Positions 6,667-58,116 of a stretch of DNA of 64,000 bases are shown one piece after another. The stretch is taken from assembly GCA_025812035.1 (NCBI GenBank), contig GCA_025812035.1_4719.1. The stretch is one strand, 5' to 3'. Below the pieces are notes generated by a model that did not search any database, had not been told where the DNA came from, and saw nothing but the letters and a program-made list of their open reading frames with translations. Numbering within the stretch: the stretch's first letter is position 1; each line of letters begins with the position of its first letter. The position numbers were made by a program, and so were the translations under genes. The stretch is from a phage.

Positions 6667-7551
6667 TCAATAACGGCCGTAGCGTTCCTCGAGCCGTTCT
6701 GGTTTTCTCAGAAGGCTATCTTTAAGCGGTACGACGTCGATATCAACACTCTCTGAGTAATAGCCGTTAGAACTACCATACCAACGGATGACAACACAGC
6801 CCTTCGCAGTGCGGATATGGTAGAATGTCCATTGTGTACGTTCGCTATAATAGCCGTAGTCATCGGTTCTTTCCTCGGTTCTTTCTTCAGCACTGAGTAT
6901 CTTTTCACCGATGATATCGTTAATATCGCCCTCAATGTCTTCAAGATACACCTCTTCGCAGCAATCCTGCTGATGACAGAATTCGACAACGTTTCCATCG
7001 CCGCGATAGAAAAGAAGGGCGATACCGTTTCGTAATTGCTCGCTCGTTACATCAGACACGCAATGCAAACTTTTATCGTCGGTTATCACCAAGACATTGT
7101 TGATTACATGCCCGGCAAGCGCTCCAATCTTATTTACCGTAACAATCGGACGAACCGGTTCAGATTGAACGATAGGAATACGGACACAACCAATTAAGGC
7201 CATCCGTCCTTTCGTTGGTCTAACCGCAAGATAAGGTGATTTTCTTGGGTGGTTATGTAGTCGTATTTCTACTTCGTTGAATTTAATCCCGTATGAACAC
7301 AGAAAATAATTGAATAGTTTACGGAATTCCTCGGTTGCTTCTTGCAACGTGATGTTATTTACTGTGAGTTTATGTCCCCTAAACACCCGGGTTAAATCGA
7401 TAACATCCAGTGTTTTGAAATATATTTCCGTAAGGGGATGACCCGTGTATTCCAGGCAAGTAATTGTTCTTTGAACCACGATTTTAGGCGGTGCGCCTTT
7501 AAAACGTTTCAGGTATTTAACGCGATAACGGGTATGATCTGACGTTAACAT
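6667..7551 (-). CDS. hypothetical protein (294 aa; start moved to internal ATG)
   Basis: ATG at 7549..7551 preceded by GGAGAGGAG; the longer track ORF would run through the terminator hairpin at 7627..7647. Confidence 0.55.
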   Translation of the reverse strand: MLTSDHTRYRVKYLKRFKGAPPKIVVQRTITCLEYTGHPLTEIYFKTLDVIDLTRVFRGHKLTVNNITLQEATEEFRKLFNYFLCSYGIKFNEVEIRLHNHPRKSPYLAVRPTKGRMALIGCVRIPIVQSEPVRPIVTVNKIGALAGHVINNVLVITDDKSLHCVSDVTSEQLRNGIALLFYRGDGNVVEFCHQQDCCEEVYLEDIEGDINDIIGEKILSAEERTEERTDDYGYYSERTQWTFYHIRTAKGCVVIRWYGSSNGYYSESVDIDVVPLKDSLLRKPERLEERYGRY

Positions 7552-7614
7552 TTTAATCTCCTCTCCTGGCTTCAGAGAATTCTCAAAATCCGTTAGTTTT
7601 GATAGACGGGATAA

Positions 7615-7647
7615 GACGGCATAAAAGCCTCCCGTATTGGGAGGCTC
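7615..7647 (-). terminator. GC hairpin followed by TTTATGCCG
   Basis: stem AGCCTCCC/GGGAGGCT, then TTTATGCCGTC on the minus strand. Confidence 0.5.
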
Positions 7648-7658
7648 CATTAATCGGC

Positions 7659-8207
7659 TTATTTCACAAGGACAGCGAATTCGAGAACGTAAATAGCTTC
7701 ATCGTCCATCGGATTTGTCGTGGTATAACCAACGAAGCAATAACCCATAAGCGAGATAAACTCGCTAAGTTTATCGATGACTGATGCCTCGATACGATCG
7801 TCAACAGACAGACGACATTTACGGGTTATGCTACATCCGCGAGGAACGCCAGATAATACGGATAGGAAATGCACGATCCGGTTATTGGTTGTGAACTGTG
7901 CATAATCGTCGTAGTGTTTAAGGTCTTTCATCGTAACCTCTACCGCCACACGGCGATCGGGTGCTACGTATTCAGAGTACGCATACGATGCGATCGTACG
8001 ACGATCTTCAGTTAGGTAAGTATTCCCATCAGGATGATAGCTTTCGATTGTTCCGTCTTCATAGGTGATGGTTACAACAGGTGCGCCGTATTCGTCGCGA
8101 CCGAAATCAACTTTACATTTGTCCGAAAGCGGTAGAACCGTACAAGGCTTTGCATTGTTCTCATCAGGGAGATCGTAACCACTCATCATTTTCAAGAACA
8201 TAGACAT
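7659..8207 (-). CDS. hypothetical protein (182 aa), paralog of 8294..8827
   Basis: shares NNAKP and TIA(S/T)YAYS segments and overall length with the adjacent ORF. Confidence 0.55.
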   Translation of the reverse strand: MSMFLKMMSGYDLPDENNAKPCTVLPLSDKCKVDFGRDEYGAPVVTITYEDGTIESYHPDGNTYLTEDRRTIASYAYSEYVAPDRRVAVEVTMKDLKHYDDYAQFTTNNRIVHFLSVLSGVPRGCSITRKCRLSVDDRIEASVIDKLSEFISLMGYCFVGYTTTNPMDDEAIYVLEFAVLVK

Positions 8208-8293
8208 AATAGAACCTCATGATAATAGATAATAGAAATGATAGATAGTACAACAAATTGAGGGGGTATTATCCCACCCCCTCGTAGGGATTG

Positions 8294-8827
8294 CTACTTA
8301 ACGATCGCGATGATTTTGCCGCCCGCACCGGCGTAATATGCCGTTAACTTACCAGTAAACAACTCTTGTAAAAGACGATTTACGTGACTAACAAAGTTAG
8401 GATTGTCTGATTTTACAAAATCGATGTTTCGCGTTTGTTTTATATCACGATCGATTAAGCGTATTTCCAACAACGCACAAATAAGGCGATCGTCGAGTTT
8501 ACCACTCGTATCCAGCACTTCCCCATACTTCGTAGCACGGACGTCCGCATACATACGGTCAACATCATCCTTCCCAAAACCACAGGAATAGGCGTACGTT
8601 GCGATGGTATTACCATTGTCCATCACGTAAACGTTACCGCCTGGGTAATCGATAAATCGTTGATCCTTATCACCATGAGCGACGAACTCCAGTGTCGGTC
8701 TACCCATCGAATCACGGTTGAATTCAATTGTGGTCAAGCGATCTGGTACCACATGCAACGTAAACGGTTTTGCGTTGTTACGATCGCTAGTATCGCAGTT
8801 AGCCATTACTTTTACAATAACACTCAT
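8294..8827 (-). CDS. hypothetical protein (177 aa), paralog of 7659..8207
   Basis: tandem duplicate of neighbour. Confidence 0.55.
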   Translation of the reverse strand: MSVIVKVMANCDTSDRNNAKPFTLHVVPDRLTTIEFNRDSMGRPTLEFVAHGDKDQRFIDYPGGNVYVMDNGNTIATYAYSCGFGKDDVDRMYADVRATKYGEVLDTSGKLDDRLICALLEIRLIDRDIKQTRNIDFVKSDNPNFVSHVNRLLQELFTGKLTAYYAGAGGKIIAIVK

Positions 8828-8901
8828 GTTTTATTCCTTAGTAGTCCTAGTAGTAGTATTGAGGAATTTCACCTCATTAGATAGTCTATTTTGGTAATGT
8901 T

Positions 8902-17589: not shown

Positions 17590-19671
17590 ATGTTGGATAG
17601 AATAAATCGTCTAATGAACCGAATAGCGGTTAAAAATCAGAGTAACAACACCGTGCATATCGGGGGTATCGATGCCTGGCGTCTTTCAGATGACATTCAG
17701 AGAATATGGGGTACCTCCCGATTTATGAAACATATGTTTCGTAATTTCTCTTCCAGTGGACTCAGTCTTCACAACTTTTACCTTCCCGATTTCGTTTATA
17801 TTCTTGAAACGATCATCGAGGCAAAGAATACCCGCAGTAACAAACGCATGCTGAAACACCTTATCGAGGTGCTGCTGCAGGAAACATGGCTGCAAAATAC
17901 CACAATCGAGCAACCTGCAATCCTCGATAAAGCGCGCATGAAGAAAATGATGACGCTTTCTTTGTTCGATTATCAAGATGAGTTTATCGACATCTATAAC
18001 CGTAACGTACCTAAATATCGACTGAAAGGATACGTGTGTGCGATGGGTGCCGGTGCCGGTAAAACTATTACCGCCTTGGCCTTAAGTGCCGCCATGAACG
18101 TCGACGTGTTTGTGGTGTGTTGTCCTAAAAATACGATGCGTTCAGCATGGCAATCCGATGTAAACAAAGCCATCGTTGACCCTGCAACAGAAACCGCGTT
18201 CTGGTCAGATACCATGCCACCATCACAACTACAGAAAAGCGATAAGTACTATTTCCTGCATTACGAATCGATGGGCTTATTAAACGATGTAATGATCAAA
18301 CATAAACGTACAGCGAAACGCGTTCTTATTGTTGTTGACGAAAGCCATAACTTCAACGACAAGAACAGTCAACGTTCCCAACGATTGGTTGATCTTGTAC
18401 AGACGATGCGTCAGACCATGAATGCGGATGTGCATGTCTTGTTTATGTCGGGTACGCCTGTTAAGCAGATGGGTTCTGAGATGATCCCGTGTTTAGGTTG
18501 TATTGACCCGATGTTCCAAGGACAGGTGGTCGATAGCTTCAAATCAATTTACGGTTTAACCAGCAGCCGTGCTAACGATATCCTCAGACATCGTCTTGGG
18601 TTCATGATGCACGTTGTACCTAAAGAAGCTTATCGTAAAACCCGCCCGGAAGTTCAGGACGTTTACGTGAAACTTCCTAACGGTAGCGATTATACCATCT
18701 CGAGTATCCGTGACGATATGGCGATATTTGTACGCGATCGGGCTAAGTATTACAAGGATAACTGGGGGCATTACCGAAAGATCTTTGATGACGCCTTGGA
18801 TTATTACCGTAAAACTATCCGTACTGATGGAGAACGTAGAGAGCTGTCTCGATATGAATCGATTGTCGCTCGTTTCCAGAAAGGTTACGATCCTGTCAGA
18901 GACAAAGAAGATGCGATGTTCTGCAACGCGTTTGAAAAACGTTCCATCATGCCGGTTCTTCCTTCCGATTTAAGGATCGCTTTCAAAGACGCCAAGAGCG
19001 TCATCAAGTACGTTGGGTTGAAAATTCAGGGTGAAGCGTTAGCTCGTGTTCTAGGTGCTGCCCGCATTCGGTGTCATGTCGACATGGTGGAGTACATTGA
19101 CTTCGAAGGGTACATCAACAACGCTGAAGCCAAGGTGTTGATCTTCACGTCGTATGTTCAGGTGGTTGAACGTGTCGACACCATGCTTCGCGATGCTGGT
19201 TTCTTACCTGAACCGATTTACGGGAAGACTAACAAGAACATCAACCAGATACTTGCTCGTTTACGTGACGATCCTGACAGCGGTCCCGCTATCGCAACAT
19301 TTGATAGTTTGGCTGAAGGGGTTCCAATGCTGATGTGTAATGTGGGCCTTTTCCTGAACAACCCATGGCGTTCGTCTGATGAAATTCAGGCCATCAGCCG
19401 TCTCGATCGTGTAGGGCAAACGCAACCTGTTCGGATTTATCGTTTCATGTTAGACACAGGAAGTGAGGGTAACGTTTCTACACGTAGTCATGAGATCATG
19501 GAGTTAAGTCGACAGCTTGTTGAAGAAATCACTGGCGTCAAATACGTAGTGAACAAGCAAGATGATGTTAACTTGCAAGAAACGTTAGCGATGGAAGGAT
19601 ACGATCAATACGTTACCGTAAACCCTAAGGAATACGATATTAAACCGCGGTCTGTGTTCTTGGAATGGTGA
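17590..19671 (+). CDS. SNF2-family ATP-dependent helicase
   Basis: Walker A MGAGAGKT, DESH box (VVDESHNF), motif VI QAISRLDRVGQTQPVRIYRF; terminator hairpin directly downstream. Confidence 0.75.
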   Translation: MLDRINRLMNRIAVKNQSNNTVHIGGIDAWRLSDDIQRIWGTSRFMKHMFRNFSSSGLSLHNFYLPDFVYILETIIEAKNTRSNKRMLKHLIEVLLQETWLQNTTIEQPAILDKARMKKMMTLSLFDYQDEFIDIYNRNVPKYRLKGYVCAMGAGAGKTITALALSAAMNVDVFVVCCPKNTMRSAWQSDVNKAIVDPATETAFWSDTMPPSQLQKSDKYYFLHYESMGLLNDVMIKHKRTAKRVLIVVDESHNFNDKNSQRSQRLVDLVQTMRQTMNADVHVLFMSGTPVKQMGSEMIPCLGCIDPMFQGQVVDSFKSIYGLTSSRANDILRHRLGFMMHVVPKEAYRKTRPEVQDVYVKLPNGSDYTISSIRDDMAIFVRDRAKYYKDNWGHYRKIFDDALDYYRKTIRTDGERRELSRYESIVARFQKGYDPVRDKEDAMFCNAFEKRSIMPVLPSDLRIAFKDAKSVIKYVGLKIQGEALARVLGAARIRCHVDMVEYIDFEGYINNAEAKVLIFTSYVQVVERVDTMLRDAGFLPEPIYGKTNKNINQILARLRDDPDSGPAIATFDSLAEGVPMLMCNVGLFLNNPWRSSDEIQAISRLDRVGQTQPVRIYRFMLDTGSEGNVSTRSHEIMELSRQLVEEITGVKYVVNKQDDVNLQETLAMEGYDQYVTVNPKEYDIKPRSVFLEW

Positions 19672-19678
19672 TTAAGAA

Positions 19679-19711
19679 GCTCTGCCTGATGTCAGGCAGA
19701 GCTTTATGCTG
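19679..19711 (+). terminator. hairpin followed by TTTATGCTG after the SNF2 helicase gene
   Basis: stem GCTCTGCCTGA/TCAGGCAGAGC, then TTTATGCTG. Confidence 0.6.
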
Positions 19712-19748
19712 CGTTTACTGCAAAATCGTATGACGTATATACGTCGTA

Positions 19749-21227
19749 ATGATTAAAAATAGGGCAGAACACATGAAACTCAAACAAAGCTGGAAAAACG
19801 AACTCCTTGCATTAGTAAACAGCAAAAACAGTTTACAACTGACATTAGACGACGTAAAATTTGAACTAACCGAACCGGTAAGCGAAGTGCCTGGAACGGT
19901 CGTTGTTACGATCAAACCGAACGATAATAGTCGCTACTTTAACGAGCAGTCTCTGACCTACGTCCGTCGAGACATTGCTAAAAACTTCACCGGGATTCCG
20001 TTACGGGTTATCGTTAAAAAAGATACCGCCGTAAGGGATATCATCAGTACGATTGCTAAACGTTACGGACTGGTATTTGATACCACTGTCGACTTCCTCG
20101 AATCAGAACTGAATAAGCAAATTACTTTCGCAGACACCGGTATTAAAGACGTTACGGTTCCGGTTGCCAATACGTCTTATGTTTGGGCCGGTAATCTTCA
20201 GTTCAATATCGCTAACGATACGTTAAGCTTGATTACTATCATCAAGAAAACCGATCTTACGAATCTGGTTTATCTGGATGGTGTTGAAGCTGACACATCG
20301 GGGTCGTTACTGTTAGCAACCGCAGCACTTGTTAACGAACACGTAAATGAACCGATGGTTGAAAACGAAGATATCGTTAATGAATTCATTAACGTTCTTA
20401 ATGCTCTAGCCAAATATGGTGACATAACCGGCGATGAATTAGATGCCGCCTTACAAGCGTACGATGAAGCAGAAAACAGGAATAAAACCACGGTAATAAC
20501 TCTTGGTGATATCGAGTGCGTTGCAACCGAAAAAGACGATTGGGAAATTGGACATTTACGCGGTCGGATGGTTCTCGCGCTCAAATCCGATAAACAACCG
20601 GAGCTCGATAACACGTTCAGGTTGTTTACGAATGGTGGTGATGTATCGCTAACGTTAAACACAATGAAAGATATAAGTATCGATTGGGGTGATGGGAATA
20701 AAGTAACGTTGGATGCCGAAGAAAGATACGCGCACCACACATATGCCGACAATAACCAATACCAAATCGAAATTGTGTCTCGTACGGACCCAGATGTGCT
20801 GCGACCAAATTATATTTCTGGGAGTGAGATAACCGAAGTAATTCACTGGGCTACTACTTCAACAATAGCTCTGAATTTTGTTGGATGCGATAATTTAGCG
20901 ACTGTTCCAGATGAGATCCCAACTTCGTGGACAACGTTGGACAGCATGTTTGAAAGTTGTACGAATTTGAATGATCCGTCTATCTCTAACTGGAATACAA
21001 GTAACATCACATCAATGAATGGTATGTTCGGCGGATGCACTAAATTTAACCAACCTTTAGCTGCCTGGGATGTCAGCTCGGTAACTGACATTGGTGGTAT
21101 GTTTGTCGGGTGTAGCAGTTTTAACCAAGATTTAAGTGGATGGCGATTACCGTCTGGAGTAAACCACCGCGATTACGATAGTGGTGCTTTCTCGTGGCAG
21201 ACGGAACATAAACCGACGTTCAAGTAA
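19749..21227 (+). CDS. protein with C-terminal DUF285/BspA-type repeats (possible start at ATG 19773)
   Basis: tandem repeats of MF..C..(L/F)N...S.W(N/D)(T/V)S.(I/V)T.M..MF over the last 100 residues. Confidence 0.6.
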   Translation: MIKNRAEHMKLKQSWKNELLALVNSKNSLQLTLDDVKFELTEPVSEVPGTVVVTIKPNDNSRYFNEQSLTYVRRDIAKNFTGIPLRVIVKKDTAVRDIISTIAKRYGLVFDTTVDFLESELNKQITFADTGIKDVTVPVANTSYVWAGNLQFNIANDTLSLITIIKKTDLTNLVYLDGVEADTSGSLLLATAALVNEHVNEPMVENEDIVNEFINVLNALAKYGDITGDELDAALQAYDEAENRNKTTVITLGDIECVATEKDDWEIGHLRGRMVLALKSDKQPELDNTFRLFTNGGDVSLTLNTMKDISIDWGDGNKVTLDAEERYAHHTYADNNQYQIEIVSRTDPDVLRPNYISGSEITEVIHWATTSTIALNFVGCDNLATVPDEIPTSWTTLDSMFESCTNLNDPSISNWNTSNITSMNGMFGGCTKFNQPLAAWDVSSVTDIGGMFVGCSSFNQDLSGWRLPSGVNHRDYDSGAFSWQTEHKPTFK

Positions 21228-21247
21228 AAAAAAAATAGTTAGCATAT

Positions 21248-21288
21248 CTTCCTCCCCGCCCATAACGGGCGGGGAGGAAGGTTTATGC
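21248..21288 (+). terminator. 14-bp perfect GC hairpin between convergent genes, followed by GTTTATGCGC
   Basis: stem CTTCCTCCCCGCCC/GGGCGGGGAGGAAG, loop ATAAC. Confidence 0.6.
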
Positions 21289-21297
21289 GCTTATGAC

Positions 21298-21636
21298 TTA
21301 GAACCAGAGTTCTTTCATGAAGTAGGCTTCCATATCGTAGATAAGCCACTCATCAGGGATTTCTAAAGGATCGTCTTCGGTTAAGGTCAGCATGTGCAGG
21401 GCGAACGCACGCTTAATATCTTCCAGCAGCTTATCGTCACCGTAATCTTCGGGTAGTTTATTATCAACCAACTGGGTTTGTTTATAAACATCACGGAACG
21501 CTTCAGGACTATGTTTGTCCATTGGGAATTGTTCGGCAGCCTGGACCATCGATAACGTCCAGCTCACAACGTTGTAACGTTCGTCGTTAATTCCACTGAA
21601 CTTATCATCGATTAAACAAATTTGTTGTACGTTCAT
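21298..21636 (-). CDS. hypothetical acidic protein (112 aa)
   Basis: complete ORF. Confidence 0.5.
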   Translation of the reverse strand: MNVQQICLIDDKFSGINDERYNVVSWTLSMVQAAEQFPMDKHSPEAFRDVYKQTQLVDNKLPEDYGDDKLLEDIKRAFALHMLTLTEDDPLEIPDEWLIYDMEAYFMKELWF

Positions 21637-22594: not shown

Positions 22595-24856
22595 TCACAA
22601 TTCGAAATCTTCATCGATAACGCGCTGTGTGAGCACCTTGTCACTGAAGAACTCTACTTTGCGCTGATGGTATTTACGGTGCGCTTCGATAGAGGTACAC
22701 ACCAGATACCAGAACGTTGGCGTCATTCCTTCAAACTTCCCTTTCAGCTGACGCAGTCGCCCCAACACCTGAATGTTACCGGTTCGTGATCCCATCGCTA
22801 ACGTCATGAACGCCATCACCAAATCAGGGAGGTCGATACCTGTCCCCGCCGATTTCACGGTTGTAACGCTGATATCGTTATCCAACAAGACCATGAAATC
22901 TTCTTCAGCGGTATAAGGACCGATCTCTAACTCGGGAATACGTTCACTGAGATAGTGCGACAATGACTTACACATATCAACGGTTGCACAATACACCAGC
23001 ATCTTCATACCTTCCTGATACTGGTTCATGAAACCTTTGATGATAACCGTATAGATAAAGTTGAAATACGCGAGTTTGAGTTGCTTATTCTTCATGATAG
23101 ACTGTTCGAATATCGTGTGTGAATAAGAACCCCCAAAGCCTTTGTATCTGATTTTATCTGTACTACGTAGTCGATACGTCACGGCATTTACCGCAATGTA
23201 TTTCTTGTATTCGCCTTTTGCGAAACGCGCTTCTTTCGGATACATCAAATACAACATCCGCTCGATGAACGGATCATCGGATACCGCTGTTGCCGACAGA
23301 TAAATGATTTCCGGAATATTGGCGTAACACTTGACTTTAAACAAGAAATGCAAGGCTTCGTGACATTCGTCGTGAATCAGTAGACCTATACCCGTCTTTT
23401 CCCAAAACTCAGCGGGATGGAAGGCGTATGGCGCAACGCAGTTATTCTTCTCGTAGTCCGCAATATAACGTTGGAACATGTTCAAGGAGAATAACGCGAT
23501 TTTGAAATCCAGCTCGCCTTGTTCCACCAACGTCTGGAATTCCAGCATGCTGTAACGAGGAATGTCGGGATGCGGTGGATCCTCCTTAGCGTTCCCGCGT
23601 ATCTCAATAACGTCCCCTGGTTCCATTCCGAAGAAGTTCAGCAATGAGCTTCGCCAACCTGGCATATACCGTGGAGAGAGTATGATGCCTGTGCGTACAC
23701 CACGTCGAAACACGATTTCCTGTGACATCGCGGTGTTGTGTGTGACGATGTGGTCTTTAATGACATAAAGGCTTTCGTCATTATCCACCGTGATGCAACG
23801 TGCTTTCGCTTTAACTGTCGGTACGATGCTATCAATCGCTAAACCAGGAAGCCTGTTAACAGGGAGATCGTCTGGAATCTCAACGTCGTCAGGAATAAGC
23901 TTAAGTAAATCGGAATGATAAATTAATGTCTCCATCGTGTAACTATCGATGGGGCATTTATACGCAATTCCTCCTAACTGATACGCCAACTCCCAAACCT
24001 TGGTTGTTATCTGTGAATCAACGGTTCTGACCGCAAGGTGAGCCTGTCCGTTTTCGATTCGCAACTCACAACGACCTTTGACCACCACCTTAAATTCTTC
24101 GAGACCTACGAGTTCTTTCGGTTCGTAAAGTCGGATTCTTATCGGACGGGGTCTGGCAGGTTTATCGTAAAGACATTCCATGATTTCGTCTGTGCTGAGA
24201 ACCTTATCGGGGTCAGTACAACGCCAGAGATGATCGCCACAAGCTTCAACCATTCTACCGTCCTCAAAGAAGATAGCATAAAGCTGAATATTGTCATGAT
24301 CGAAGATCGCTGTAACGTTGGTCGGTAGCCCATTCGCACCAATAACCCGATCCCCTACTTGAAGCTCACCAATCGGCTTCCAACCACCTGGAACCTTTAC
24401 AGGCGTATGAAGCGCTAGCGCTTTGCCACTGCCTGTTTGAGCGGTGTTTAGGCTCATTCTGAAGGGGGTATCCTTACCCCCGTTCATGTACTCCAGCCAT
24501 TCTTGCTGATCTTCTCGCCACGGAAACTTCCATTTCTTTACGAACTCCACTTCCTTACCGGGTACCGGATCATGGTAAACGATCTCCAGCCACTCTTTTC
24601 GGATTCCTCGGGAAAAGATAAAATCCAAAAACGATTTCAACTGTTCGCGGAGTAAGTATACCTCGCTATAATCGCTTCTCGCTGCGGCATACGTGTTTAT
24701 GGTATCGGTAACCATTCTCCGTGTACGAGGGTCACGTCGTTTCCTCAGATGCAAACAACGGTCTCGAAGGTAATGGCCGATAAGATGGGCAAATCGAAGT
24801 CCGTATCCGCTCAGCTTCATGCCATGCGAGAAGACGTCGATACGAGCTAACTTCAT
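22595..24856 (-). CDS. SF2 (DExH-box) helicase precursor containing an in-frame intein in the P-loop
   Basis: Walker A AQTGSGK interrupted, DExH box LLIHDECHEA, motif III LSATA, motif VI QVLGRLRQ; start codon overlaps stop of the beta' C gene. Confidence 0.7.
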   Translation of the reverse strand: MKLARIDVFSHGMKLSGYGLRFAHLIGHYLRDRCLHLRKRRDPRTRRMVTDTINTYAAARSDYSEVYLLREQLKSFLDFIFSRGIRKEWLEIVYHDPVPGKEVEFVKKWKFPWREDQQEWLEYMNGGKDTPFRMSLNTAQTGSGKALALHTPVKVPGGWKPIGELQVGDRVIGANGLPTNVTAIFDHDNIQLYAIFFEDGRMVEACGDHLWRCTDPDKVLSTDEIMECLYDKPARPRPIRIRLYEPKELVGLEEFKVVVKGRCELRIENGQAHLAVRTVDSQITTKVWELAYQLGGIAYKCPIDSYTMETLIYHSDLLKLIPDDVEIPDDLPVNRLPGLAIDSIVPTVKAKARCITVDNDESLYVIKDHIVTHNTAMSQEIVFRRGVRTGIILSPRYMPGWRSSLLNFFGMEPGDVIEIRGNAKEDPPHPDIPRYSMLEFQTLVEQGELDFKIALFSLNMFQRYIADYEKNNCVAPYAFHPAEFWEKTGIGLLIHDECHEALHFLFKVKCYANIPEIIYLSATAVSDDPFIERMLYLMYPKEARFAKGEYKKYIAVNAVTYRLRSTDKIRYKGFGGSYSHTIFEQSIMKNKQLKLAYFNFIYTVIIKGFMNQYQEGMKMLVYCATVDMCKSLSHYLSERIPELEIGPYTAEEDFMVLLDNDISVTTVKSAGTGIDLPDLVMAFMTLAMGSRTGNIQVLGRLRQLKGKFEGMTPTFWYLVCTSIEAHRKYHQRKVEFFSDKVLTQRVIDEDFEL
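23735..24421 (-). other. intein (229 aa, residues A146..N374 of the helicase precursor)
   Basis: inserted between GSGK and T of Walker A; ends ..VTHN followed by Thr; Ala at position 1, DHLW and RCITV segments resemble the class 3 Trp/Cys/Thr arrangement. Confidence 0.55.
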
Positions 24857-45028: not shown

Positions 45029-46284
45029 AAGTCGGCATTATAACCTTTCAAGATCATCACGCTTAACCCGATGGTGTTATCCTGCGGATCGCGTTTAACC
45101 TTGGTGATTTCAAGACATTGGTTACTGCTTCGGTCAAGTGATGGATTTCGAACAAAACCACACACAATCCCATCAAACGGTGTATCAGCAATAAGCTCAT
45201 CGTGCAGCTCGCTCATCATCGGATGATAATTACGGACATGTTCCGCAACGAACGCACGTGCTGCTCTTGGTGAATAACCACGATGGAATAACTTGGATTG
45301 GATATGTTCTTTATTGGTTAATGTAAATGGCGCGTATGGGAAATGCAGATGATAATAACGATGGTTCGCTGTTATCGAACTGATTACGGTACGCGTGGTG
45401 AATGGATGTAATGTACCTAATATGTTTTTACGTGTGATACCTTTCTTCTTACCGATGAACTCATCGAAAATCGCCGAGTGGTACTGCAGCAGCTTCAGTT
45501 GTACTTTCGCCATCCAGTTTTCTTTCTTTCTGGCGCTCAAAGGTGTTGTTGGGTGATAGATACTATTCAATGTACCGATAGCATCGATCGCACCTTCCAT
45601 TTTGCTATCTGCATAACGACCGGTTGGTGTATTCTCGATAACGAACATCATGGCGGCAGGAAAACTGATATACTGGCTGAAGAACTTATCGCGATGAATG
45701 CGGGTGAATTCTCGTAGCGTATCAACTTTCTCCGTGTTCTTCGGTCCGCGTAACGTAGGTCCTTTATACAAGATCTCCATGATGCGATCGAAGTTCTGTA
45801 TAAAGCTATTTATCCCACGTCGTATCCCGAATACATCGAATTGCTGCTCCAGATAGTTCTTGAGTTCGATGGGTCGTTTTACGTTTGGACGGTAACTGGC
45901 ATCAATGAGCCACGTCATCGTTTCAAAGCTTTTGATATTCAACTCGCTTGCCAGCACGAGATGGACCAACGGGTTAATAAACGCATCAATTCCTTCAGGA
46001 ACACGCGCCCAAACCGTCGAACGAATCTCTTGTTCTGCTGGGTAGGTTACAACCGTTTTACAGTTTGGACACACCGTGCCAAGCAGCTCACCACGATTGT
46101 AGAAACCACATCCACATTGTGGTGTGATATCCAACGTATCGCTGGAGTAAACACGGGTGATAAAACTGTTTAATTTCTTCTTCTCTTCGACGACTTTTGT
46201 GTCGTAATCATTCAACAAAATAGGCGTAAAAGGAAGTTCTGCGAGCTGTCTATCGAAACTCACGATATCGAGCATGATGGCCAT
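45029..46284 (-). CDS. RNA polymerase beta' N-terminal fragment, exon 1 (ends ..YNADF)
   Basis: zinc finger CGCGFYNRGELLGTVCPNCK and ..NPSL.R...Q.....IGL..ILKGYNADF parallel E. coli beta' up to NADF; unspliced frame stops 5 codons after NADF. Confidence 0.75.
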
Positions 46285-46320
46285 GGGGTATCTCCTACAA
46301 ATGAAAAAGAACGTTAGGAC

Positions 46321-46350
46321 GTATAAGGGAGGGAGGTTGCCCTCCCTCCC
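46321..46350 (-). terminator. 10-bp perfect GC hairpin after the 631-aa gene, followed by TTATAC
   Basis: stem GGGAGGGAGG/CCTCCCTCCC, loop TTGC. Confidence 0.6.
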
Positions 46351-46376
46351 GTCAGATTACATCGAACGTTCTTCCA

Positions 46377-48272
46377 TTAGAACAGGTTGAATGCCCCACC
46401 CATGTTGTTACCACCAACGTTCGGACGATCGCTGCGTGCGTAGATGCTACCGGAGATATTACCCAGACCACGAGCACGTGCTGCCATGTTACCACGAACA
46501 GCGGTACCCGCCAGATGCTGGATATTCTCAGGACGGATGGTGAAGCCAGCTTCAGCAGCTGCTTCAATCAACGCAGCAAGCGCTTGCGGTTCGAAGTCGT
46601 AACGCATTGCCCAACCGGTTTGTTCCCAGCTACCAGACAGAACACGATCGATGATTTCGTGACGAGCGACAACACGCTGAGACATCGACATATCGGTACG
46701 GTCGAAGCTGTCTTCCCATGCTTCTACGGTATCCGGGTTAGTGATGTTCATCATGTACAGATCGTCCATATCGCGAATATCGTGACGGTTACCATCCTGG
46801 TGGTTGTAGTGACCCAGCGGGATACGGTTACCGGTAGCGTAGACCAGCGGTTGACCGTATTGATATTTCTTGCTGAAGCAGCCCAGGGTAGTATCATCGA
46901 AGGCACGGAAGAGTGCTTTGTAACCTTCAGAGACTTCCCGAACATCAGCCTCAACATTACCCGTATAGATCTTCTCAGCCGCCGGGATCATACGCAACAG
47001 CCAGCTGTATTCGCCTTCTTCCGGCACGTCGATAGAAATCAGCAGGGACGGATACAGTACCTGTTGCAGGAACTTGTAAATCTGCTCATTGGTTTGAGTA
47101 GACAGATCCAGCGGTGCGGTAACTTCCGGATCCAGCACCATCGCCAGAGCACCCGGGTTATGCGGACCGATACCACGAGCAGCGTTGCTGATTAAAGACT
47201 GCGCCCATGCCATGCCGCTGTTCAGCGTAGCAATGGTACCAATCAGACCCAATACAAAAGTATTCGGTGTGAATGCGTCCAGCTCCAGCGGGTAAGCGCT
47301 GGTCATCACGTAACGCGGCTGGTATTGTACAGTCGGCGGTACCGGATAACCGTTAACCAGAACAGGACCTTGGTTGAAGGTCGGGTTCTGCGGGCTGTAG
47401 GTCAGGTCGATATAGCCGGTAGTTGCGACCAGACGCTGCTGGCTATCGTAATCGCTCATCGCTTGACGGATGCGGTTAGAGATAGTTACAGTGATGTCGG
47501 AACGCACTGGGTTACCAACGATATCGCTGTCCTGCATACCGCTGGTGTTATACTGAACGCTGCTGATCGGCTGATCGCTTGCCATCATGCCCAGGTTGAA
47601 CTGCGGCAGGCCCAGTTTATCACCGAGACGGATTTCGATTGCGGTTTGGATTGCGTTATCTGCAGCAGACAGCAGGGTGGTTGCCAGGTGTGCAGATTCA
47701 GCGGTGATTTCATTGGTCACCACAGCCAGACCAGCGATACGAACAGTACCATTAGCCTTGCCACCAATAGCCGCATACATTGCCGCCATGACTTCGTTGA
47801 TGAACGTGCCGTTCAGGTTATCAACCCAGGTACGCGGTACCAGAATGTTACCATGCGGACCTTGTTCTTCACGACGCGGCAGCGGAGCCAAACCGGCAAC
47901 CAGCGGAAGCACATAACCGAAGAAGTGGTTATGATCACCAACTTTCGCACCACTCATAACCACCAGGGTCGGATACGGTACACTGTACTGACCAGGATCG
48001 ACAGTCACCATGATGAAGTCGTCTTTAAAGCCTTTATCTTCCAGTTCTTTTTCCATCAGACGACGGAGGTTCAGTACTTGCTCAGAACCGGTGTTACGGC
48101 TAATACGACGACTCAGTGTACGGTTGATCGTACGCATCGTATGAGTCACTTTAGGCTGGCCAGCAAAGTCTGCAGCGGTTTCCAGCGCTTCATCTGCACG
48201 TTGTGCGGTGCGGGTTTCAGCTGCACGAATTTCTACATTATCGTTACCGTTTTTACGTACGTCTAAGCCCAT
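46377..48272 (-). CDS. abundant 631-aa protein; candidate nuclear-shell (chimallin-like) or major structural protein
   Basis: very strong codon bias; disordered N-terminus and Gly-rich C-terminal tail; conserved promoter-like motif upstream and strong GC hairpin downstream. Confidence 0.6.
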   Translation of the reverse strand: MGLDVRKNGNDNVEIRAAETRTAQRADEALETAADFAGQPKVTHTMRTINRTLSRRISRNTGSEQVLNLRRLMEKELEDKGFKDDFIMVTVDPGQYSVPYPTLVVMSGAKVGDHNHFFGYVLPLVAGLAPLPRREEQGPHGNILVPRTWVDNLNGTFINEVMAAMYAAIGGKANGTVRIAGLAVVTNEITAESAHLATTLLSAADNAIQTAIEIRLGDKLGLPQFNLGMMASDQPISSVQYNTSGMQDSDIVGNPVRSDITVTISNRIRQAMSDYDSQQRLVATTGYIDLTYSPQNPTFNQGPVLVNGYPVPPTVQYQPRYVMTSAYPLELDAFTPNTFVLGLIGTIATLNSGMAWAQSLISNAARGIGPHNPGALAMVLDPEVTAPLDLSTQTNEQIYKFLQQVLYPSLLISIDVPEEGEYSWLLRMIPAAEKIYTGNVEADVREVSEGYKALFRAFDDTTLGCFSKKYQYGQPLVYATGNRIPLGHYNHQDGNRHDIRDMDDLYMMNITNPDTVEAWEDSFDRTDMSMSQRVVARHEIIDRVLSGSWEQTGWAMRYDFEPQALAALIEAAAEAGFTIRPENIQHLAGTAVRGNMAARARGLGNISGSIYARSDRPNVGGNNMGGAFNLF

Positions 48273-48526: not shown

Positions 48527-49621
48527 ATGTTTCGTGTTTTAAATAACCTCCCGCGAACATCATCGGGTGTGCAACCCATCCCTCAGAAAGACTATCTGAT
48601 ACGCGAAGTTCAAAGAAACCTACAAACAATCCAGAACCACTATCAGGGTTTTACCTTCGCGGTTCAGAGTGATCACATCCTTGCGTTGCTGCTCGCACAG
48701 CTCCCTATGAGATACGACATCTCTGTACAAACTTACTACGACATGATTCTCGATCTTACACCAGAATTGGGTAATCGTGTTAAGTTGACAACATCGAGAT
48801 ACGCAGGTAAGTTATTCGACGGAGCTTTCTATCCGGGATTGCATGAAGCCATCATCGCAACCGGTGAAAGCCGTCTTATTTCACGGGATGTTCTTGACAA
48901 CTGGCGTAATTGGTCACCGGTTAGAATCGTGACGCACCCGTACGCAAATCTTCGTTACATTCCTCTTCACCGAAAACAGGTTGAAGAAGGACGAGGTTTC
49001 GCGGTCATCATGGTCGATGTACCTTTATTAGCATTACAGTATCGAATGTGGTCTTTGGTCATGGGCCATAACGTCGACGGTAAATGGGTGGTTAAAGAAC
49101 CGGTTACGAGCTTCCTTGCGAGTTTTCCATTGGTTAACGCATTATACTCACACAACGATGTTGTCATACGCAACCGTTGTTTGTGGGTACCTCCGGCTAA
49201 GAATCCACTCAAGTCGCCGATTTACGTTAACGACCTGGATAACGTATTCAGTCAAGTCGTGCTGTCCGTACAACATCATTTATTACGAAGAAGACGAAGC
49301 TACACCGACATGCTTAAACAGATACCGAGTTTATACGGGGATCAGTACCAAGCAACCCGAATGGGCTACACCGTCGATCTTCGACAAACCCGATGGGCAA
49401 GGGATCTAGGCTGTATGTCATTATGGCAGCAGCTCGTCACACTGCAAAACGTATCTGAAAGCGTCGGGTTCAGCAGTCAAATCGATAATGATCTGTACCG
49501 CGCCGCCGACCGGAGTCTGAAAGAAGGTAGCTGGGAATCCTCTCCGTTACCCGGCGATTTGCGGCGTGAAGTTATCGCACAGGTTGCCGACCTCTTAAAA
49601 ATTCTTCCTGCTGGGACATAA
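48527..49621 (+). CDS. hypothetical protein (364 aa, plus-strand island)
   Basis: long ORF; inverted copy of the promoter-like motif upstream; hairpin downstream. Confidence 0.5.
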   Translation: MFRVLNNLPRTSSGVQPIPQKDYLIREVQRNLQTIQNHYQGFTFAVQSDHILALLLAQLPMRYDISVQTYYDMILDLTPELGNRVKLTTSRYAGKLFDGAFYPGLHEAIIATGESRLISRDVLDNWRNWSPVRIVTHPYANLRYIPLHRKQVEEGRGFAVIMVDVPLLALQYRMWSLVMGHNVDGKWVVKEPVTSFLASFPLVNALYSHNDVVIRNRCLWVPPAKNPLKSPIYVNDLDNVFSQVVLSVQHHLLRRRRSYTDMLKQIPSLYGDQYQATRMGYTVDLRQTRWARDLGCMSLWQQLVTLQNVSESVGFSSQIDNDLYRAADRSLKEGSWESSPLPGDLRREVIAQVADLLKILPAGT

Positions 49622-57273: not shown

Positions 57274-58116
57274 ATGGGTGCTATTGACTACAGTGTAGAT
57301 CGTATCTGTCGTACAATACCGGCAGATATCCTACAGTATTGCTATATCGATCGTTACGACTGGCGTAACCGATATCCACGTTCCGTCGAAGACATCATTA
57401 CCGATTGGGTAATTCGTAAACGGGTTATCGGCGACATTGATATCTACGGGGGACTACAAACCGTTGTTCCCCTTGATGATGCAGGTGTTACTATCGAAGA
57501 AGTCACCATTAACTGTTATGTTTTCCATATTCCATTGGAAGCCACACAGGGACGTTATATCACGTCCGCATTATCCATTATTTCAGGGAGTGTGAACAAC
57601 TACGGTATAAACTATAACGGTCAATGGGGCGCTTTCAACCAAACCCAGTTCCAACGACAGCTTTGCGGATGGAACCCTGCAAGCAACACATTACAGCAAG
57701 GGATGAACGCATTCGGTCCCATGAACGTTCTTAGTACAGCGAACGTTGATATCATCGCTCCTAACACCATCATGGTGAACAACGTCACGCCTGTGCAGTT
57801 TCCACTGAGTCTACGTTGTTTCCTTGCCCACGATCCGGAACTCACCAACCTCAGCATGGAGGTTTGGAACGACTTCTACAAACTCTGTTTATATGCCACA
57901 CAAAGTGACATTTACAACAGAACCGTTATCCGTCTTGATAGAGGTGTTACCGCACAAGGACAAGAAGTCGGTGCATTCAAGGAATACATCGACCGCTTTG
58001 CTGACGCTGAAAACACGTATCAAGAATTCCTGAACGAAACGTGGGCAGGTGTTGCCGCATGGAACGATCCACAAACTAAACGTCGCGCTATTCGTTTGCA
58101 AACCGGTTACTTCTGA
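57274..58116 (+). CDS. hypothetical protein (280 aa, plus-strand island)
   Basis: ATG preceded by AAAGGGGTGA; hairpin downstream. Confidence 0.5.
   Translation: MGAIDYSVDRICRTIPADILQYCYIDRYDWRNRYPRSVEDIITDWVIRKRVIGDIDIYGGLQTVVPLDDAGVTIEEVTINCYVFHIPLEATQGRYITSALSIISGSVNNYGINYNGQWGAFNQTQFQRQLCGWNPASNTLQQGMNAFGPMNVLSTANVDIIAPNTIMVNNVTPVQFPLSLRCFLAHDPELTNLSMEVWNDFYKLCLYATQSDIYNRTVIRLDRGVTAQGQEVGAFKEYIDRFADAENTYQEFLNETWAGVAAWNDPQTKRRAIRLQTGYF

Follow-up and report, generated by a model that had tools for sequence, protein, structure and literature searches.

Gene locus and flanking elements

The DNA analyzed here (the window) is a stretch of 64,000 nucleotides from a phage (contig GCA_025812035.1_4719.1 of assembly GCA_025812035.1). 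It was found to be about 91% identical in nucleotide sequence to Escherichia phage vB_EcoM_Goslar (Goslarvirus) and syntenic with it over 25 kb, and Goslar is known from the literature, including an April 2026 preprint (bioRxiv 10.64898/2026.04.21.720040; hereafter, the Goslar preprint), as a member of the nucleus-forming Chimalliviridae. Judged by this identity and synteny, the window belongs to a Goslar-like nucleus-forming jumbo phage, and the DUF7941 protein described below comes from a chimallivirus.

The initial annotation placed the gene of interest at 19749–21227 on the plus strand, and an open reading frame is present at these positions, encoding 492 amino acids counted from the first ATG; the start, however, had to be revised. 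In place of the ATG at 19749, Goslar and a third relative have CTT, and this non-conserved ATG is separated from the ATG at 19773 by a 2-nt indel in the comparison with Goslar and with a Logan contig from SRR6504847 (L004). The ATG at 19773 is kept in Goslar and L004, opens the sequence MKLKQSW, and is preceded by a TAGG(A/G)CAGAA stretch. Because this ATG is conserved and the MKLKQSW start is used in all database homologues, we take the protein to be 484 amino acids in length. An NCBI protein identical to this form (P0001) comes from a 238.6-kb contig labelled E. coli and already bears the name "BspA family". The features of the locus are as follows:

19676–19705, plus strand: upstream hairpin with a 13-bp stem, between the SNF2/DEAD helicase gene and the gene of interest
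19773–21227, plus strand: coding sequence from the conserved start, 484 amino acids plus stop, orthologue of Goslar gp161
19773–20327, plus strand: DUF7941 (PF25613) N-terminal globular domain, residues 1–185 of the 484-residue form, a presumed adaptor or oligomerization head
20328–20597, plus strand: helical linker (residues 186–237) and β-rich C-terminal subdomain of DUF7941 (residues 238–275)
20598–20858, plus strand: β-sandwich (jelly roll) of eight strands with a conserved DWGDG motif, residues 276–362
20859–21224, plus strand: leucine-rich repeat (LRR) solenoid of the DUF285/PARCEL type, four repeats of ~25 residues plus a C-terminal cap, residues 363–484
20321–21215, plus strand: replacement cassette of ~900 bp lacking blastn-detectable similarity to Goslar, in surroundings that are ~91% identical
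21242–21288, no strand assigned: GC-rich downstream hairpin, between the gene of interest and the convergent minus-strand gene at 21298–21636

The locus is syntenic with Goslar gp160–gp162, and the gene occupies the position of gp161 (HOV27_gp161, YP_009820846.1), between the SNF2/DEAD helicase gene and the gp162 orthologue. The two proteins have the same four-part architecture and similar lengths (484 and 483 amino acids), and their genes have the same flanking hairpins; on these comparisons, the protein of the window is the orthologue of gp161.

The gene had been counted among the few plus-strand genes of the window, and this proved correct, as only four plausible plus-strand genes (17590–19671, the gene of interest, 48527–49621, and 57274–58116) were found among the open reading frames of at least 100 amino acids. 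Together with the upstream SNF2/DEAD helicase gene, it forms a small plus-strand island amid minus-strand genes, and its neighbors are replication genes (helicases and RNA polymerase subunits) rather than a tail module. A search of the window for a paralogue found none, the best other tblastn match having E = 0.06. The plus-strand gene at 57274–58116 encodes a 280-residue, full-length member of DUF7484 (E = 2.9e-87), and the 364-residue product of 48527–49621 belongs to no Pfam family.

The upstream hairpin was predicted to fold with −23.7 kcal/mol (z = −5.0), and none of 200 shuffled sequences folded equally well. The Goslar annotation has a terminator at this place, and the stem in L004 carries a compensatory change of C-G to T-A. 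This hairpin probably acts as a terminator, with the gene of interest as its own transcription unit. The downstream hairpin had predicted energies of −38.4 kcal/mol on the plus strand and −37.6 kcal/mol on the minus strand (z about −7, matched by none of 200 shuffles), and a run of eight A residues beside it on the plus strand corresponds to U8 after the stem on the minus strand; it is probably a bidirectional terminator.

A perfect 14-nt palindrome, GACGTATATACGTC (19732–19745), is located past the upstream hairpin and ahead of the conserved start, inside ATCGTATGACGTATAT, a stretch that is kept in Goslar and L004. This palindrome may serve the phage RNA polymerase as a promoter or operator. 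As a recurrent motif it was rejected, being present in a single copy in the window and having at least one match in 30 of 100 shuffles. A scan for sigma-70 promoters yielded four sites compared to 9.2 expected, none of them intergenic, and the sole plus-strand site falls inside the gene of interest; the scan carries no information on promoter use, as chimalliviruses use their own RNA polymerases.

Two other regions of the window were noted in passing. The minus-strand gene at 22595–24856 is the orthologue of the Goslar gp164 DNA helicase, with 753 amino acids compared to 524 in Goslar, and it contains an insert of ~229 amino acids (about 23738–24440) that breaks the Walker A motif (TGSGK/ALALHTPV...DHIVTHN/TAMSQ, with slashes at the junctions). 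The insert matches the DnaB-type mini-inteins of PDB entries 6rix, 6riy, and 6bs8 (E = 3e-12), with which it has in common the ALAL.TP start and the THN end, and a Pfam search with the whole 753-residue helicase gave nothing at E up to 0.01. The initial Ala, the block-F Cys, and the terminal T-H-N presumably indicate a class 3 intein. In L004, the orthologue of the same helicase (6822–8831) is at least 876 amino acids in length and has a weak LAGLIDADG_3 match; another, larger intein that includes a homing endonuclease may be present in or close to that gene. Of all 2-kb blocks of the window, 46001–48000 is the most GC-rich (0.519 compared to 0.41–0.49 elsewhere), and it coincides with a 631-residue minus-strand open reading frame (46377–48272) that has several long antisense open reading frames (226 and 313 amino acids).

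Domain composition of the protein

The domain layout was obtained by combining an AlphaFold2 model, residue conservation, and profile alignments. The N-terminal 350 residues had been described as unlike anything recognizable, a view that was not borne out: residues 12–195 match Pfam DUF7941 with 91.8 bits relative to a cut-off of 27 (E = 6.5e-26), spanning positions 5–193 of the 276 in the profile, and the same region is matched by PHROG 1037 and 2935, both of which are annotated as "virion structural protein". The AlphaFold2 model, based on 39 homologues, was confident for residues ~280–484, where pLDDT is mostly >90; for the N-terminal domain, with a shallow alignment, it was poor (pLDDT 30–60), so that for the N-terminal fold we rely solely on sequence homology. 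In the linker and β-rich subdomain, helices at residues 202–214 and 220–232 and β structure at 239–271 were predicted with a pLDDT of 70–85, and residues G245, K254, D256, W257, I259, G260, and G264 are invariant over both paralogue classes described below.

When residues 1–195 were compared exhaustively by HMMER with 1.84 billion cluster representatives, only 65 DUF7941 relatives were found at E ≤ 0.001. They range from 134 to 1717 amino acids in length, and nearly all of those listed carry the module at the extreme N terminus, within the first ~20 residues. A word-indexed search with the N-terminal 276 residues returned close relatives only. In a Pfam scan of 61 DUF7941 representatives, DUF7941 was found in 60, DUF285 in 11, and LRR_5 in one, and one of the 61 bears the TIM barrel of a non-contractile tail sheath protein.

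When a broad 61-member profile was compared with proteins of solved structure, it matched phiKZ gp127 (PDB 9XQD, chain 0, "PHIKZ127") with E = 6.3e-15 and 58.5 bits, and profile positions 11–269 aligned to gp127 residues 16–290, which is nearly the whole of gp127. The phiKZ virion atlas (Nat Commun 2026, PMC13250141) places this protein in the "star lobe" of the outer peripheral baseplate, where the band of gp139 dimers ends. The module of the window's protein is therefore homologous over its entire length to a protein placed in a virion structure; gp127 itself is a bare 290-residue DUF7941 protein, without the β-sandwich and LRR that the window's protein has. The PDB searches with the single sequence and with a narrow orthologue profile did not reach gp127, and so the relationship is a distant one. 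A PDB transketolase match (E = 0.33 with the single sequence, E = 0.11 with the narrow profile) was rejected as spurious. At the level of sequence profiles, the homology to gp127 independently confirms the link made in the Goslar preprint. We note that the preprint gives the phiKZ outer-baseplate entry as "9QXD", whereas it is 9XQD in the depositors' paper and in the PDB, and that it writes "DUF4391" for DUF7941 in places.

The C-terminal tandem repeats reported in the initial annotation were readily recovered. There are four units of the form MF.GC..FNQ....W.(T/V)S.VT.M..MF, with FxxC anchors at residues 377, 401, 427, and 452 (numbered on the 492-residue form), giving spacings of 24, 26, and 25 residues. 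In a BLOSUM62 autocorrelation of residues 381–480, evaluated relative to 500 shuffles, lag 25 had z = 7.0 and lag 26 had z = 3.4, and all remaining lags from 5 to 40 had |z| ≤ 2.1. The DNA contains a 49-nt direct repeat with 75-nt spacing and 71% identity (21020–21068 and 21095–21143).

A search of repeat-family profiles, one of the checks that had been proposed, placed these repeats in the DUF285/PARCEL family. Pfam DUF285 (PF03382) matched residues 395–473 with 89.4 bits relative to a cut-off of 25 (E = 1.9e-25), and the 26-residue model of NCBIfam TIGR02167, "PARCEL repeat", matched three stretches with 51.6 bits relative to a cut-off of 30. The tandem period of ~25 residues (75 nt) agrees with the canonical PARCEL unit of 25 residues (Roske et al. 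2010, PMC2996958). Another hallmark of PARCEL repeats is dyad symmetry of the repeat DNA, often with an overlapping antisense open reading frame (PMC2996958). In the repeat-coding DNA of the window, a search for dyad symmetry found only imperfect inverted repeats of 11–17 nt (71–91% complementary) without a repeat-phased pattern, and the antisense open reading frames at 20843–21091 and 20270–20752 had no Pfam match at E up to 1; this feature of PARCEL repeats is variable and may have eroded (PMC2996958).

Structure prediction, which had likewise been proposed, yielded an LRR solenoid that superposes on the solved LRR structures 4fs7 and 6mlx, with an aligned identity of 14–15%, as in the BspA/TpLRR-like subclass. 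Relative to such BspA/TpLRR proteins, the window's protein differs in lacking a sequence match to LRR_5 (PF13306), which was absent among its Pfam matches at E up to 1. Thus, the assignment to a DUF285/BspA-like family stands with respect to DUF285 and TIGR02167 and fails with respect to LRR_5, and the name "BspA family" is a naming convention for DUF285 and not evidence of kinship to Tannerella BspA. The DUF285/PARCEL surface proteins of Mollicutes and other microbes have the canonical 25-residue repeat and matches to both HMMs in common with the window's protein, which differs in having only four repeats, in not being a lipoprotein, and in carrying the repeats on a phage virion-protein scaffold. 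For the middle domain, a PKD domain (PKD_4) was considered, and neither a significant HMM match nor a PKD-like fold was found.

Replacement cassette and relatives of the tip

The relationship to Goslar changes abruptly within the gene. The blastn alignments stop at 20320 and restart at 21195. Nucleotide identity is about 90–97% up to 20320, that is, in the N-terminal domain; in 60-nt windows it drops from 97% to 43% at ~20320, ranges from 33 to 67% within the cassette, and recovers at 21215–21240, at the stop codon and terminator. Accordingly, residues 1–185 are 94% identical to those of gp161, whereas residues 186–484 are only 31–49% identical (31% for 186–285, 34% for 286–360, and 49% for 361–484).

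A similar pattern was found in a set of 56 orthologues (P0001–P0055 and Goslar gp161). Residues 1–185 are 90–100% identical to those of the window's protein over the entire set, whereas clustering at 70% identity separates the C-terminal parts into five groups. The C-terminal type of the window's protein recurs only in P0001–P0003 and, distantly, in P0004. Among the 41 Goslar-type alleles, the mean column entropy is 0.08 bits in the N-terminal domain and 0.50–0.60 bits in the LRR and β-sandwich.

Orthologues of gp161 that end after 276 amino acids make up at least two protein clusters at 90% identity (P0066 and P0077, with 16 member sequences). The cause of this short form was read from DNA in one example, L004 (4001–5452), in which an in-frame change of CAA to TAA at codon 277 (...KPI*YILK...) splits the orthologue into a 276-residue DUF7941 protein and a downstream 193-residue DUF285 open reading frame. 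This stop coincides precisely with the junction of DUF7941 and the β-sandwich. The existence of 276-residue alleles indicates that the tip is dispensable, at least sometimes.

A second class of proteins with this composition was found in the Goslar-like genome GCA_961210045.1 (L003 6001–11348, CAUIQD010000007.1), which encodes a 584-residue DUF7941 and DUF285 paralogue directly upstream of a gp91-like 175-residue DUF7941 gene, followed by a 967-residue tail fiber gene with Phage_tail_fib and Peptidase_S74 domains. The 584-residue paralogue occupies the position of Goslar gp92, a protein of 1198 amino acids with another C-terminal part; these differing C-terminal parts indicate that the gp92 locus too swaps C-terminal modules among Goslar-like phages. 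The β-sandwich of the window's protein is 45–49% identical to that of the 584-residue class compared to ~34% for Goslar-type gp161, which hints at an exchange between paralogues.

DUF285 domains are present in many other jumbo phages and have been noted earlier without a function. In two unrelated phages, such domains are found near structural genes: in Citrobacter phage Tr1, a match to the β-sandwich and DUF285 adjoins a "tail assembly protein", and in Edwardsiella phage pEt-SU such a match is located between virion structural and baseplate assembly proteins. In Vibrio phage vB_VhaM_pir03 (ORF198–200), a 19-kb DUF285/PARCEL gene lies two genes past an SNF-family DEAD-like helicase (PMC7765460), the same helicase-then-DUF285 order as at 17590–21227 of the window; this may be a coincidence or an old arrangement in jumbo phages with multisubunit RNA polymerases.

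Possible role at the virion surface

The initial annotation suggested a host-interaction or virion surface protein, and this suggestion gains support from the homology to gp127 and from virion proteomics, the remaining proposed check, which the Goslar preprint provides for the orthologue. According to the preprint, gp161, in which DUF7941 is followed by an LRR, is one of ten DUF7941 proteins of Goslar (gp22, 23, 31, 33, 34, 86, 91, 92, 93, and 161). Mass spectrometry of CsCl-purified virions recovered 27 of its peptides, covering 54% of the sequence (Table S4), and it was estimated at ~111 copies per virion (range 74–174). Each of the ten proteins was found, and two reached hundreds to thousands of copies. 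Chimallin, ChmC, and PhuZ were present in the same sample, and the authors explain them as assemblies that co-purified. Virion presence is thus reported for the orthologue gp161; for the window's protein, the present analysis shows the domains, the LRR fold, the orthology, the homology to gp127, and the limits and variability of the cassette, and we infer an external location, oligomerization, and host binding.

Purified gp22 makes filaments, as seen by negative stain, and the preprint proposes that a "cloud" of head-to-tail DUF7941 filaments extends from the baseplate and aids in host recognition, with gp161 as a component of the host-recognition fibers (bioRxiv 10.64898/2026.04.21.720040). 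In its AlphaFold 3 model, the linker and C-terminal subdomain of one protomer dock on the N-terminal domain of the next. The cryo-EM maps of Goslar did not resolve the DUF7941 proteins, and this fiber-cloud model, available as a preprint only, rests largely on AlphaFold predictions. The conserved motif G245...W257..G260...G264 is compatible with head-to-tail docking without being proof of it.

With moderate confidence, we favor the interpretation that the protein is a modular virion adhesin, consisting of a DUF7941 anchor and a ligand-binding tip of β-sandwich and LRR that is swapped by recombination. Judged by its homologue phiKZ gp127, the DUF7941 module (~275 amino acids) would anchor the protein at the outer baseplate; alternatively, it would join the protein to other DUF7941 proteins in head-to-tail filaments, as proposed for Goslar gp22 and gp23, which would radiate from the baseplate. 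The β-sandwich and the short four-repeat DUF285 solenoid would most likely form a tip that binds a host-surface structure as its ligand. One exchangeable cassette would comprise the linker, β-sandwich, and LRR, and phages would swap it by recombining within the conserved N-terminal domain on one side and at the stop codon and terminator on the other; such swapping would diversify what the virion can adhere to.

Tail-fiber-like proteins have a conserved attachment domain and an exchangeable distal part, and swappable C-terminal receptor-binding domains are exemplified by T4 gp37/gp38, the P1/Mu S gene, and the K1F/K1-5 adaptor–tailspike proteins. The window's protein has in common with such modular fibers and tailspikes a conserved N-terminal anchor, an abrupt recombination boundary, and distal variability. 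It differs in that its tip is a β-sandwich and LRR whereas theirs is a β-helical fiber or spike, in that its anchor is the chimallivirus-specific DUF7941, and in that the ~111 copies per virion of the orthologue gp161 are far above a six-fold stoichiometry.

Observations that count against the interpretation as an adhesin include the location among replication genes, the tip-less 276-residue alleles, and the co-purified non-virion assemblies. The protein could instead decorate the virion surface for non-specific or environmental adhesion (mucus, other glycans), a role proposed for T4 Hoc and its Ig-like domains, or could serve only in building DUF7941 filaments, and in neither case would it confer host specificity. 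We regard this as rather unlikely, given that a sharp replacement of the cassette and a variability that rises toward the tip are expected of specificity determinants under diversifying pressure, and that a paralogue is encoded near a tail fiber gene. Co-purification raises the question of whether the orthologue is a non-virion contaminant that acts elsewhere in infection, as chimallin, ChmC, and PhuZ were in the same preparation. However, the sample contained the full set of ten Goslar DUF7941 proteins, two of which reached hundreds to thousands of copies, the phiKZ virion structure includes a homologue, and the matching PHROG families 1037 and 2935 are annotated as virion structural, so that a contaminant is very improbable.

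A packaged protein that is ejected into, or acts in, the host cell, with the LRR binding a host or phage protein in a manner comparable to the bacterial LRR effectors IpaH and SlrP, is also improbable, if less so. The module is homologous to gp127, which was modeled in the outer baseplate and not in the capsid; the known ejected families are PF12699 and not DUF7941 (bioRxiv 10.64898/2026.04.21.720040); and DUF285 proteins elsewhere have been described as surface proteins (PMC2996958).

The adhesin interpretation can be taken one step further, tentatively and with more doubt than belief on our part: the monomeric β-sandwich and DUF285 module may be a true receptor-binding tip, displayed in ~100 copies on DUF7941 filaments, and the phage may re-target its host range by swapping the ~900-bp cassette at this locus and with the paralogue at the gp92 position.

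Databases or the 2026 literature already contain the repeat family, its fusion to DUF7941, the presence in virions, and the hypothesis of host recognition. What is added here is incremental, namely the cassette structure, the paralogue beside a tail fiber gene, and the nonsense alleles, and these make the host-recognition hypothesis directly testable. The outermost baseplate elements, which bear on host recognition by chimalliviruses, have not been fully resolved or assigned in the Goslar and phiKZ structures, and the locus amounts to a natural experiment in which phages whose flanking DNA is ~91% identical have a near-invariant anchor and an entirely exchanged tip. DUF285/PARCEL repeats, for which no ligand is known, occur widely in Mollicutes, in other bacteria, and in many jumbo phages. 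If the tip is indeed a receptor-binding module, these repeats would add a new class to the receptor-binding domains of phages, and this would be the first defined function of the family.
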